The notes beneath the pieces are model-generated. The model was given only the letters and a program-made list of their open reading frames with translations, did not search any database and had not been told where the DNA came from. Positions 9,762 to 43,185 of a stretch of DNA of 64,000 nt are shown here, piece after piece; the stretch's first letter is position 1, and the number at the start of each line of letters is the position of its first letter. This stretch comes from Eledone cirrhosa. Taxonomy: Eukaryota. The position numbers and the translations under genes are program-made. The stretch covers positions 31,124,001-31,188,000 of the forward strand of contig OZ024749.1 in NCBI GenBank assembly GCA_964016885.1, given 5' to 3'.

Positions 9762-10159
9762 TACATTACTTGATGTATGACATACCTCAACGGTCTTGAT
9801 AGTTCAATTCCAGTATTGGCAGTGAGTTATATAAATCACTGCCAATACTGGAATTGAACTATGTACCTTCGAAATATATATATAATAAAATATATATTTT
9901 GATTATGTGAATGTCTTCATTTATTTATTATTCTGAATAATAATAGCTCCACAAAACTTGACTGGAGAGTGCTTTTAATCTATTGTAAAACTATATTCAC
10001 TGAGTAATCAATGAACCATATTAATCTTTAGTTTTATATATATATATATATATATATATATATATATATATATATATATATATATATATATATATATATA
10101 TGTATATATATATAGTGACGAAACATAAGTCAATTGCATGAACTCATAATCCTTTATTT

Positions 10160-10215
10160 ACTGCTATATATATTTCGATGATAGCCATTGAATGGCTATG
10201 ACCTCATCAGGCAGT
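10160..10215 (-). ncRNA. Type I hammerhead ribozyme, intact
   Basis: Reverse complement of the motif at 10323-10378. Confidence 0.88.
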
Positions 10216-10322
10216 TAGTCAGTTCTTAGATATGCCAGCTCTGTGTGTATAGTGTTGATGTCCCAAGGCTCTGATACGATCAACACTATACACACAGAGC
10301 TGGCATATCTAAGAACTGACTA

Positions 10323-10378
10323 ACTGCCTGATGAGGTCATAGCCATTCAATGGCTATCATCGAAATATATATAGCAGT
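10323..10378 (+). ncRNA. Type I hammerhead ribozyme, intact
   Basis: ACTGC-CTGATGA-GGTCATAGCCA TTCAA TGGCTATCATC-GAAA-TATATA-TA-GCAGT, then AAATAAA. Confidence 0.9.
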
Positions 10379-10534
10379 AAATAAATGATTATGAGTTCAT
10401 GCAATTGACTTGTTTCGTCACTATTATAACTCCGGAACTTATATCTTCGCTGAGTGCTCCCTATCCGCATACTGAAGTACTGGATTTTACCAACACTTAC
10501 TTTCTTGCTATATATATATATATATATGGTGGTG

Positions 10535-10810
10535 AGATACTGGATGGACAAATGTTTAAATGATTTCGCTTCGCAATCACTATGACCAGTATTTGACCCA
10601 ACTCCTTAGCGACTTGCATGGCTAATCCAAACCTGTAATTCAAAGGGCCAGGCCTTTCACATATTGCGTCATGCTGAATCTATCTAAGAACTATCCTAAG
10701 GTTACACGTGTCTCTGGAATGATCAACCACTTGCATGTAATTTTCATGGGTAATTTGTTCCATTGATCGAAAATTCGGAACACCCATCGTTGAAAGGGAC
10801 GGAGATCCAT
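10535..10810 (+). mobile_element. Old SINE-like repeat of a second family
   Basis: Degenerate tRNA-like head followed by a body (AAAGGGCCAGGCC...TACACGTGTC...GACGGAG) that I recall as a cephalopod repeat. Unverified. Confidence 0.45.
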
Positions 10811-11637
10811 TGATATACCTCTGTGTGTATGTGTGGTGTATGTATTGGTGTACGTGTGTGCATATGCACTTTGGCATAACTATATATATATATATATATG
10901 TATATATATATATATGTGGTGTTGTATTTTCTTACCTTAAGTTGCTCGCACATTGCTCGGTTTGTTGTTTATTTTCGCTGTTTTTTCACTGTTTTCTATT
11001 TTCTTCCCTCCCTCCTCTGTTTTCCCAATAACTAATCCAGTTATTGACGCTCTGAGAGGTAGATATCTTGTCTTTAAAGCGTAGAAATATCCGAGACCGT
11101 TGAGTAGACAACTGATGAGGAAATCCCTTCCCTCGTTCTTTCTTTCTTTTTCTACTTATCCCCACTCCATTTTAAGCTATATATATGTATATGCATATTT
11201 ATAAATATATATATATATATAAAAAACATATATATATATATATATATTTATATATTCACGATTTCACCGAATTTAAATTCATAGAAATCTGGGACTTGTC
11301 TCTTTCTTCCTCACTTTCTGTTGCTTCACCATTTTGTTTGTTTACCCTCGCGTCCCCTTTATTTACGTGTCCCAACGACTTTTTTTAGCCGTTGCTCGCA
11401 CCAACCGGAGGTATATGGTCTTTGATGCGATGAAATGCCTATGATGGTTGGAAGATCACTGATGAAGGACAACCTTTTTTCATATGTAACCCATTTGCAA
11501 CTCCGCAGCGCCCTTATTATCATATATATATATATATATATATATATATATATATATATATATATATATATATATATATATATATATATATATATATAGA
11601 GAGAGAGAGAGAGAGAGAGAGAGAGAGAGAGAGATAG

Positions 11638-12026
11638 AGAATGAAGAGTAACATGTTTGTCTGTACAATAAGGGGCTTTATTTCAGGTATTGACAATCGT
11701 ATTCTGATGAATTGATCAGAGGTAAATAATGTAATGGAGATCGAGTGACGCAGCTTCAAGCAATTACCGACCTCTAGACTCACCTGATCAATGAAACAAT
11801 TGTCAATACCTGAAATAAAGCCCCTTGTTGTACAGCCGACCATATTACTCCTCATTCTTTTACTATTATTACTCCAAGTATAACCTACATAGGGAATACC
11901 GCGAACTCGTTGCCTAACTATGGATACATTTTGTTGAGTTAAACAAAGCCGTATGTTAAAACTATCCAGGACGCAGAGTACTCACAACCTCTAACTGGAT
12001 TACCTATAACGATAACTTGTTACCTC
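11638..12026 (+). mobile_element. PLE pLTR insert: short inverted arm, hammerhead and long tail
   Basis: 11638-11697 is inverted relative to 11799-11858. Same family as the pLTR at 54449-54615. Confidence 0.75.
11699..11809 (+). ncRNA. Type I hammerhead ribozyme with an ~80-nt stem II domain
   Basis: GTATT-CTGATGA-ATTGATCAG...CTGATCAAT-GAAA-CAATTG-TC-AATAC. Canonical GUC site, AATAAA downstream. Confidence 0.85.
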
Positions 12027-12284
12027 ATAGATAGATAGATAGATAGATAGATAGATAGATAGATAGATAGATAGATAGATAGATAGATAGATAGATAAAC
12101 AACACACACACACACACATATATATATATATATATATATATATATATATATGTTTGTAACTGCTCACTCTTAATCTTAGCCAACTTTTCCTTGATATCTT
12201 TCCTAAGCTTTAATAGATGTATACTCCATATTCTTCTGAGTTTTTGGCTTGTATTGGCCGATAGTGCTTCTTGTAGCTTTACTT

Positions 12285-40233: not shown

Positions 40234-40293
40234 ATATATATATATATATATATATATATATATATATATATATATATATATATATATATATAT

Positions 40294-40453
40294 GGGAAAA
40301 AGTTTAACCGCGGCGGCAGAGCTGAAGCCGTCGAAACGGCTTGAGTTCTGCCGTCGGGGTTAAACTTTTTCCTATTACCCACTCTACTACCCAAAGTATT
40401 GAGTACTCTGATGCGTTATGGTCTATCTGGTTCCTTACCACATCTCCTTCGTT
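40294..40453. mobile_element. Fold-back insert, family P: palindrome 40295-40372 plus tail
   Basis: GGAAAAAGTTTAACC...GGTTAAACTTTTTCC, tail with TGAGTACTC, (TA)n flanks. No complete hammerhead core. Confidence 0.65.
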
Positions 40454-40816
40454 ATATATATATATATATATATATGTATAGAGTGAGAGATAGAAAGCAG
40501 GACTACAACTGTTTCATTCGTGAGAAATCATCAGGAAGCTGACTGTCCAGGCAAATATGGTGGTATTTATATATTTTCTGATGGCAGGAGAGGGTGGGGA
40601 TTGGGATGGGTGGAGGTTATTGGGTGATGGATTTAAAGAAAAGGGAATTAAGTCACGCTTTTTAGCATGATGTTAGAACAATTGCATTTACCTCCAAATA
40701 TTGTAAATATATAGTAAGTCTATAAAACATTTGTAAATATATTGTCATTCTATATAATGTTTTTAAATATATAGACATTTTATAAAATGTTTTTAGATAT
40801 ATTGTCAGTCTATATA

Positions 40817-40995
40817 ATTGTTTCTACTTTTGGCACAAGGCCAGCAATTACCCAGTGCATTACTGGTACTTTATTTTATCGACCCCGTAAGGATGAAAGG
40901 CAAAGTTAACCTCGGCGGGATTTGAACTCAGAATGGCAAGGGCCGTAACTCTATGCGTCAAAGCATGGCGTCCGACCCTCTGCCGATACTGCCAA
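40817..40995 (-). mobile_element. tRNA-derived SINE, young copy
   Basis: Consensus-like over its whole length. Confidence 0.9.
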
Positions 40996-41332
40996 AATAT
41001 TTGTAGGAATATGATAGTACCAACCAAACTAATGTTCCAGTGGTTCTTTCATTGTTGATACTATTAGCCAGTTTCAGCTCCAGGAAAATGGAGACATGAT
41101 GGGAACACAGAATTAAATTCCACAAATGAACACTTCTAAGTATTTAATATTTCAGATAATCCACGAACCATGGAACATAAAACAACGAAAGGCCACAGTG
41201 ATCTTGGTGAGATTTAAGAGCAAAGAACAGTGAACCGGAAAGATCACTGAGGCATTTATGCCAACGCTCCCTAACCGATCTAACGACAATTTTCCATTGG
41301 AATCAGTACGAATATCATTATATTTGTACTGA

Positions 41333-41905
41333 CGTTGGATTGGTAGTATCGGTAGAGGGTTGGACGCCATGCTTTCCAGCATAGTTACGTCCCTTTACGA
41401 TCTGAGTTCAAATCCCGCCGAAGTTGACTTTGCCTTTCATCCTTACGGGGGTCGATGAAATAAAGTACCAGTAATGCACTGGCTAATTGCTGGCCTTGTG
41501 CCTAAAGTAGAAACAATTATATTTGTACTGATTCCATGCTTTCGGACGCCATGCTTTCCAGCATAGTTACGTCCCTTTACGGTCTGAGTTAAAATCCCGT
41601 CGTGGTTAACTTTGCCTTTCATCCTTAAGGCGTCGATAAAATAAAGTACCAGTAATGTACTGGGTAATTGCAGGCCTTGTGCCTAAAGTAGAAACAATTA
41701 TATTTGTACTGATTCCACATTCCATTTGAATAGAAAATTTCTAGTATAGGCACAATGCCAGTAATTGGCGGGGGAGGAGTAGTCGATTTGATCGACCTCA
41801 ATACGTCATTGGTACTTTATTTTATCGACCCCGTAAGGATGAAAGACACAGTTAACCTGGAACTCTGTCCGTAAAGGACCGTAACTCTATGCTGCAAAGC
41901 ATGCT
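41333..41905. mobile_element. Three SINEs: two tandem (+) at one target site and one (-)
   Basis: Copies at about 41333-41515, 41543-41696 and 41737-41905. ATTATATTTGTACTGA occurs three times. Confidence 0.88.
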
Positions 41906-42804
41906 GTGATCAGTACAACTATAATGGAAACTGGAAGATATTTAACGGGTGTGTGAAATTACTGGTACAACCAAGATGTGGTAAATAATAACAGATTTAG
42001 TATTAAAGTGAATGAAAACGAAACCCCAAAAAAATAAAAGGACTATAAAACGAATCACACACAGAACGAATACAATGAAAGTACTTAATGGATTATGAAG
42101 CCTATAAACAAAATTAGATAAAATTGCCGAAGATCATTTGGAATTATGAAAATGGTAAACAACGAAAAATGCCAACGGTCAACTCATTTCGTAACAGAAA
42201 AACAAAAATAACTAGTAATCTTCTCTCTGGTATTATCTCTCTATCTCTGGATATATATATGTGTTTGTATGTATGTGTGTGAATTTTATATGTATATACA
42301 GAAATATATTTATGTAAGTATATATATATATATATATATATATATATATATATATATATACCAGCATTATATGTGCATCTCTCTATATATTTTTACATAT
42401 ATATTATATATATATATAGAGAGAGAGAGAGAAAGAAAGAGAGTGCGAGAGAGACACACATATAATGCTCACATACATAGATATACACACGTACAAACAT
42501 ACATACATACATACATACATACATACATACATATGTTCATATACATATATATATACATATATATACATATGTATATATATATATGTATATTTTATCTGCA
42601 TAGAAATAAACGTATTCATCAATGTTTAATGTAATACACATTTCTTAAGCCTGATGTTGTGAGAGGGGCGGGTATCAATAACACGATCTTGTGACTCTTC
42701 AATATGGTTTCGAATCCACTAGCTGACACAATCATGTATATATGTTATATATATATATATATATATATATATATATATATATATATATATATATATATAT
42801 ATAT

Positions 42805-43185
42805 GCAAAAGTTCTATTTAAATTGTTGGGATACAAGCAAATATTTTTAGAACTGATCTAAAGCACTCAACAAGTATTTGGAGTAAACATACGATATTAA
42901 CAAATGGAAACTATATTTATAAAACCATATTTATTTCATTATACATATTTCAAGGACACCAAGTTAAATTATGGTGTGCTTTCATCAGACAAAACATAGG
43001 ACTATCCGGGAGCTTCCAACAGTAATGGTTGCATTTTTTAAGGGTATGTCAATATTTATTTATAAAACTGATCTATATTATATTTTGTCTGATGAAAGCA
43101 CACCATAATTTAACTTGGTGTCCTTGAAATATGTATAATGAAATAAATATGGTTATCTAAATATAGTTTCCATTTGTTAATATCG
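42805..43185. mobile_element. Fold-back PLE pLTR insert, family L copy 2; hammerheads 42933-42994 (-) and 43082-43144 (+)
   Basis: Inverted arms each carry CTGATGA...GAAA-TATGTA-TA. Tail on the left. Confidence 0.82.

Follow-up and report, generated by a model that had tools for sequence, protein, structure and literature searches.

The window analysed here is a stretch of 64,000 nucleotides (nt) of Eledone cirrhosa DNA (contig OZ024749.1, positions 31,124,001 to 31,188,000). It is rich in microsatellites. The sites discussed below are located within short insertions that have two arms, have landed in (TA)n, contain hammerhead cores and are extended on one side only, by the tail. This two-armed form is a known shape of truncated Penelope-like elements (PLEs), according to Craig et al. 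2021 (PMC8557442; this and the other papers are cited for the portions of their text that were accessible). By protein motifs, the motif-bearing elements that could be linked to an ORF (open reading frame) are members of a known PLE clade, Hydra, and the twin hairpin described below is a new cis-acting RNA motif. The original prediction drew attention to eight GAGTRCT-type sites; all of them are present, at the positions and on the strands it gave, and the tails at 30281 and 46552, from which it reported the motif to be missing, indeed have none. GAGTRCT corresponds to the 3′ strand, with its flank, of a bulged RNA hairpin that is predicted to fold as 5′-RCUCY..loop..R-UH-GAGY-(RCU)-3′. Hairpin 1 lies in the tail and hairpin 2 just past the tail end; the element ends before them are called putative start sites 1 and 2. 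The following features were recognized, the eight sites being given in brackets.

9410..9438, minus strand: hairpin 1 of family 9945 (Hydra); tail end 9348 in (TA)n; family read-throughs carry hairpin 2 and a Hydra N-terminus
9946..9970, plus: hairpin 1 of a diverged copy of family 9945 (site 9967); tail end about 10029
10112..10509, plus: two-armed truncated Hydra insertion, inverted arm to start site 1 (10112), direct arm and tail to start site 2 (10509); family read-throughs at loci L009, L013 and L014
10328..10365, plus: hammerhead core pattern in the pseudo long terminal repeat (pLTR) of that insertion, with a minus-strand mirror copy from 10210
10429..10455, plus: hairpin 1 (site 10451)
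11871..11939, plus: hairpin 1 of family 11875, with a long loop; ends 11638 (site 1) and about 12022 (site 2)
11976-11982, plus: alternative second 3′ strand of the family 11875 hairpin (itself one of the eight sites)
12380..12401, plus: hairpin 1 in GCTC/GAGC form; hammerhead core 12288; tail end 12469, 11 nt before the family's hairpin 2
29684..29703, minus: hairpin 1 of family 42891; ends 29959 (site 1) and 29625 (site 2)
29981..30344, plus: for contrast, a two-armed insertion with a motif-less tail; the open reading frame (ORF) of its family (30281) is Neptune-type
33752..33811, plus: hairpin 1 (site 33807); hammerhead core 33639; tail end about 33886
36442..36465, plus: hairpin 1 of family 36440 (site 36461)
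40126..40145, minus: variant hairpin with a single-U bulge (site 40122-40130)
40381..40404, plus: hairpin 1 (site 40400); tail end 40455, 3 nt before the family's hairpin 2
42865..42884, minus: hairpin 1 (site 42862-42869); ends 43186 (site 1) and 42800 (site 2)
43089, plus, and 42988, minus: hammerhead cores of the same insertion
46231..46594, plus: for contrast, a two-armed insertion with a motif-less 38-nt tail; the ORF of its family (46552) is of a non-Hydra PLE, with GxKF and DKG
47212..47231, minus: hairpin 1 of family 42891, one core base mutated; ends 47584 (site 1) and 47154 (site 2)
56978..57001, minus: further hairpin in GCTC/GAGC form; microsatellite 81 nt on

The original list overlooked further GAGTRCT matches on the minus strand (9413, 9432, 29687, 19881, 27678, 44890, 2531 and 39) and the plus strand (22013), as well as a GAGC form of the motif at 12380-12401 (plus) and 56978-57001 (minus). 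In the window the bare 7-mer exceeds background, with 22 strand-matches against a shuffle mean of 8.2 and maximum of 15 (30 shuffles); in 590 kb of untargeted genome it was weakly enriched (113 versus a mean of 92 and a maximum of 109 in 5 shuffles). The signal of GAGTRCT is positional: 8/8 sites have an RCTC partner upstream and a microsatellite 42-76 nt downstream. Among 55 rows (duplicates counted) of tails picked in 654 kb by structure only, that is, by an inverted arm and a microsatellite at both ends, 14 contained the 7-mer, and these came from several unlike families; one of the 55 had the GCTC/GAGC form. Neither the closing C of the motif nor its RCT flank is universal, and the hairpin near 11975 is more probably closed by a GAGT further upstream, at 11936-11939. 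Hairpin-like sites with the 7-mer also occur at 19870-19905 (minus; wobble in the core, microsatellite 49 nt on) and 21988-22016 (plus; no nearby microsatellite).

Leaders upstream of Hydra N-termini were clustered, yielding ten families with complete leaders, and scanned de novo for every 3-bp core with bulge sizes of 0-3. A CTC/GAG core with a 2-nt 3′ bulge was present at two or more places in 10/10 leaders; 200 control shuffles averaged 0.55 and never exceeded 3, and the top score for any GC-rich core was 6. With other bulge sizes the same core was found in 2-3 of 10 leaders. All 22 hairpins from 11 families (33753 added) fit RCUCY..R-UH-GAGY, the bulge beginning with U in 22/22, and the twins are placed between the hammerhead and the start codon. 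In whole-leader folds, the core pairs had a median probability of 0.87, above 0.5 in 46/63.

The second hairpin was first revealed by read-through copies of family 10428. Using a search pattern made of the tail end and a loose non-TA requirement, with the hairpin left out, read-throughs were found, as predicted, to run into hairpin 2 in 5/5 window families that yielded them (40370, 42891, 11875, 33753 and 9945). In four of the five the sequence continues into a Hydra N-terminus, while in the family 33753 copy examined none follows hairpin 2. The proposal of a conserved cis element stands in its strong tie to element ends and was incomplete on three counts: instead of being a linear signal of its own, the motif makes up one half of a hairpin with a bulge; the elements in which it was detected are all of the Hydra clade, as far as they could be linked to an ORF; and its second copy, just past the tail end, is visible only in read-through copies.

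The clade was assigned by protein motifs, which identify the ORF-linked motif families as Hydra-clade retrotransposons. In family 10428, 3/30 copies continue beyond the end of the tail, and the ORF they enter contains SLKDIP and RRMRWR. RWK or RWR at residue 37-38 is found in 3/3 complete ORFs and in N-termini of further families; SDKT (DKT instead of DKG), a CxCX5C linker and, C-terminally, a GIY-YIG, whose core has no cysteine pair inside, are likewise present in all three, and the CX2-5CxxC finger is absent. Single ORFs measure 712, 719 and 863 amino acids, and one tandem unit 3.54 kb; Hydra ORFs lie, for example, at L266:5457-7613 (minus) and L280:617-2752 (plus). The clade is also marked by short length (under 3 kb), a single ORF and an endonuclease that lacks the CCHH motif. 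Hammerhead core patterns at 10328, 12288, 29864, 33639, 43089 and 47483 mark putative ribozymes. No strict core was found in the sequences fetched for families 40370 and 9945, and a search of Rfam gave no hammerhead among the matches listed (150/243), these being only chance microRNA-like matches to palindromes and microsatellites. Hydra families insert into (TA)n. The Hydra clade of Craig et al. (PMC8557442) shares RWK/RWR, DKT, CxCX5C, the C-terminal GIY-YIG and the pLTR hammerhead, together with (TA)n targets, inverted truncated copies and a one-sided tail. That paper gives PLE tails of 30-40 bp, compared with 76-165 nt here, and the accessible text ascribes the tail to the endonuclease with no mention of a leader hairpin.

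Of the two motif-less families, 30281 (L276 and L277) encodes GxKF, DKG, a CX2-5CxxC linker and, C-terminally, a GIY-YIG, as in Neptune, and no hairpin was found in the leaders of 30281 or 46552. Since both are non-Hydra, the motif follows clade in the ORF-linked families. A Neptune identity had also been considered for family 10428, on account of a GIY-YIG fragment beside copy L015; its read-throughs gave Hydra. The long ORFs at 25758-28975 were rejected as parent of the tails, as they belong to a non-LTR element (RVT_1, zf-RVT).

Pairing between ACTC and GAGT, as originally proposed, is supported by covariation. MAFFT did not align these variable-loop hairpins, so the core served as the anchor for counting pairs in 78 unambiguous sites from 53 leaders, selected on the 3-bp core alone. 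The outer pair was Watson-Crick in 69/78 (G-C 59, A-U 7, U-A 3; shuffle mean 51) and the pair above the 2-nt bulge in 66/78 (C-G 42, U-A 24; shuffle mean 36); the next two pairs up reached 50/78 and 39/78 (shuffle mean 21). None of these counts was attained in 10,000 column shuffles. In registers with 0, 1 or 3 bulged bases, pairing was at chance. The first bulge base was U in 71/78, and the paired purine was present in 72/78. The base after GAGY and the base before RCUC pair at chance (24/78), so the R of GAGTRCT is unexplained by stem extension, which was rejected as its cause.

The same sites bear on a different role for the motif, in which self-complementary GAGURCUC dimerizes two RNAs by kissing and so produces the inverted structure. 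GAGTACTC is palindromic, and the G variant would still pair by wobble. However, the fully self-complementary 8-mer was present in only 7/78 sites, and its commonest form has a central mismatch and is half occupied by the stem. We rejected a kissing loop on these grounds and consider it hardly credible.

Relatives were examined in a metagenome set in which 77 loci, 62 of them with an N-terminus, gave 53 families, 42 having at least 180 nt upstream. At least one hairpin was found in 40/42 families (5 in the ORF control, 13 in shuffles) and two non-overlapping hairpins in 27/42 (ORF control 0/42; shuffles mean 1.3, maximum 5), spaced 55-74 nt apart. Their usual form is GCUCY..RUYGAGCACU, of which GAGTRCT is therefore an A-U variant. 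In the published Hydra consensi (accessible part of File S7 of PMC8557442), the hairpin is clear by eye in 3/6: Hydra-2_Amil (coral), Hydra-1_Ajap (sea cucumber), which has it twice before the start codon, and Hydra-2_Ajap (sea cucumber), which has it once. It is degenerate in Hydra-1_Crog and not clear by eye in Hydra-1_Amil and Hydra-1_Obim.

The positions of element ends connect the hairpins with insertion. After removal of duplicate loci, 50/50 microsatellite-abutting ends in untargeted DNA fell 0-20 nt before hairpin 1 (23) or hairpin 2 (27), where ∼13% would be expected, as did 46/51 ends of bystander copies (∼13% expected by chance). Loci fetched for their own family, a biased set, gave 102/104, and in metagenome loci 9/9 microsatellite-abutting ends lay 2-18 nt before a hairpin (two judged from listed positions). 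Of the untargeted ends without an adjoining microsatellite, 13/36 were at hairpin sites. In two-ended insertions, site 1 was paired with site 2 in 41/42 cases (17/18 in untargeted plus bystander loci), and only the nested pair formed by 9348 and 10029 departs from one hairpin per end. Tail length tracks hairpin spacing (r=0.996, 76-165 nt, 8 families), and terminal element bases overlap the (TA)n phase by a mean of 3.1 nt versus 1.3 in a matched null, both figures coming from an end mapping that lost ends with a gap near the junction. Hairpin 2 lies outside the terminal copies and is absent from the inserted DNA.

The hairpins could instead serve packaging in cis, translational feedback or hammerhead control, with UA-rich stretches alone setting the ends. 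Their location between hammerhead and start codon would suit such functions, and the (TA)n overlap at junctions exceeds the null; yet leaders are AU-rich throughout, whereas the microsatellite-abutting ends fall only before hairpins (50/50), alternating between the two. We regard this explanation as very unlikely.

We consider it probable that GAGTRCT is part of a twin leader hairpin of which each member binds the reverse transcriptase (RT) and sets the start of copying a few bases 5′ of itself. Recognition by the RT is likely, judging from the sequence data, and so is a role of the twin hairpin in setting both start sites. The endonuclease would cut (TA)n on both strands; priming would take place before hairpin 2 from one cut end and before hairpin 1 from the other, with UA-rich pairing over a few bases assisting it and choosing the start base, and probably two RT molecules act. 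A copy begun at hairpin 2 would include hairpin 1, the 'tail', and a copy begun at hairpin 1 would give the tail-less inverted arm. As hairpin 2 sets an end and yet is absent from inserted DNA, it would act on the template. The strict use of one end per hairpin points to a coordinated two-site complex, not free choice. A dimeric RT is plausible; a two-copy complex prediction for residues 1-230, made without alignment, gave no answer (score 0.00).

There is an in vitro precedent in PAc, a Poseidon element of Anolis, for which cutting and extension of both target strands was shown, along with two internal RT start sites whose intervening sequence makes up the tail (Frangieh 2024, PMC11167929). 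PAc resembles the present elements in having two internal start sites that bound the tail, an AT-rich target and a predicted dimer. It differs in that its start sites are inside the ORF, 111-118 nt in, with one AC-rich stem loop, instead of twin hairpins in the leader; it belongs to another clade, and its accessible text describes no conserved or twin motif. This study also bears on the possibility that RNA 3′ ends are formed at the hairpins, with cutting or trimming 5′ of each by a nuclease, terminator or 3′-processing factor and the RT starting there. Such cutting would account for the identical end positions, and for the Anolis element reads were observed that stop at the two sites (PMC11167929). 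The same study, however, found initiation to be internal, on uncut RNA, and cleavage alone leaves the use of one site per end (41/42 insertions) unexplained; we think 3′-end formation unlikely.

Action in DNA is a further alternative, with the GIY-YIG endonuclease recognizing a single-stranded or cruciform hairpin and resolving an intermediate beside it. Craig et al. (PMC8557442) attribute the tail to endonuclease-mediated resolution, and the D. virilis endonuclease required the tail region (as cited in PMC11167929). The conserved pairs, moreover, are almost all Watson-Crick. However, with hairpin 2 lying past the terminal copy ends, cDNA synthesis would need to begin further 3′ and its product would then need exact trimming, and the near-invariant bulged U suits an RNA-protein site. 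We judge a DNA-level role quite unlikely.

Several observations weigh against RT docking at twin hairpins. The in vitro precedent comes from another clade, with an AC-rich stem loop and priming reported as non-homologous (PMC11167929), and other PLE clades form tails without this motif. Untargeted ends with no adjoining microsatellite fall elsewhere in 23/36 cases, and the hairpin is no strict ruler, as shown by offsets of 2-19 nt between end and hairpin. No read-through was seen among 19 other copies of family 36440 or 11 of family 40153, neither of which could be linked to an ORF, and the hairpin of the latter has a 1-nt bulge. In the metagenome set, 15/42 leaders are without two strict hairpins (some are short or variant). 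Folded in isolation, the hairpins are weak (z −0.2 to −2.9). Column shuffles ignore the relatedness of the sequences, and the strand test yielded G-U versus A-C counts of only 3 versus 2, too few to show the strand.

In LINE-1 twin priming, both strands of a cut target prime cDNA and an inverted 5′ piece results; the second priming site depends on fortuitous annealing, and the inverted piece is no duplicate. Here, by contrast, both sites would be fixed by hairpins. A candidate partner for the hairpin is a conserved basic helix of the Hydra protein (R35 93%, R37 100% and W38 100% in 121 sequences), the basic stretch at residues 34-39 lying inside helix 18-43 of a predicted structure (predicted local distance difference test 93.7) whose best PDB match is a telomerase. 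PLE RTs are the closest retroelement relatives of telomerase, a kinship through which the RNA site bears on the origin of template-positioning RNA elements.

In secondary structure, the hairpin has a feature of the arginine sandwich, a bulged pyrimidine after a paired base and an A-U pair one step beyond. The HIV TAR/7SK ASM3 sandwich (Pham et al. 2018, PMC6189040) has the same order of paired purine, bulged U, then G, A (U-paired) and G: A22, U23, G26, A27-U38 and G28 in TAR, and A39, U40U41 and A43-U66 in 7SK. In the Hydra hairpin the bulge is on the 3′ strand and the loop on the other side, and no homology is claimed; a TAR/7SK-type bulge with the basic helix as partner is a lead only. A still more specific version, possible but doubtful, is programmed twin priming, in which two TAR/7SK-type hairpins each dock one subunit of a dimeric, telomerase-like RT through the KRMRWK helix and cDNA is made from opposite (TA)n strands. 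If true, the tail is the distance between docks, and the ∼150-nt leader would serve as a start cassette, portable and tunable, with which any upstream RNA could be inserted.

How PLEs choose where a copy starts, and why the tail is one-sided, is presented as an open question in the accessible text of PMC8557442 and PMC11167929. The twin hairpin would explain this puzzling one-sidedness, and, because its pairs covary and its position relative to both ends is fixed, defines precise mutations for the existing in vitro system. It is also usable as a marker of Hydra-clade fragments without ORF. A literature search, which did not cover subscription papers, Repbase notes or figure images, found no description of the hairpin, nor was one found in the accessible parts of PMC8557442, PMC11167929, PMC4209133, PMC13282606 and bioRxiv 10.64898/2026.07.22.740005.

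Some copies may depend on other elements. Family 33753 (L272:3260-3510, minus) runs through hairpin 2 into non-coding sequence; because no long ORF was present in three fetched copies, it may be non-autonomous, using a Hydra RT in trans. At L180:1515-2030, the tandem 257-nt units of family 40370 are limited to the end of the pLTR, the two hairpins and the initial codons, an array that looks like a non-autonomous, retrozyme-like form. An abundant family with a 56-nt motif-less tail (L036:4273-4440, plus; also L041, L064 and L384-L394) has, in its single read-through, a canonical hairpin a few bases past the tail end and no canonical hairpin 1. The motif-less clades also have two end sites (L276:570-650, plus; L278:7630-7700, minus), and only a few bases after each comes a C/A-rich word that includes CAC; this may be a start signal comparable to the Anolis AC-rich stem loop.

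The remaining features of the window are other repeats and nested insertions. Between 8867 and 10601, at least three TA-targeting insertions are nested within each other's (TA)n flanks. One short interspersed repeat, which we take to be an octopus OK-type short interspersed nuclear element (SINE), is present in many copies (9440-9650, 39840-40015, 40825-40995, 41340-41700, 44515-44690 and 45840-45950), and one SINE-like copy interrupts the inverted arm of the 9945-family insertion. A near full-length, frameshifted non-LTR retrotransposon with RVT_1, zf-RVT and an (AAT)n end occupies 25325-29150 (plus); its C-terminal RPD..D motif suggests a restriction-like endonuclease, and a hairpin-like match on its minus strand (27675-27720) is probably due to chance. 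At 34748-35500 (plus), a 250-codon frame represents the 3′ end of a LINE (long interspersed nuclear element) running into C2H2 zinc-finger repeats.

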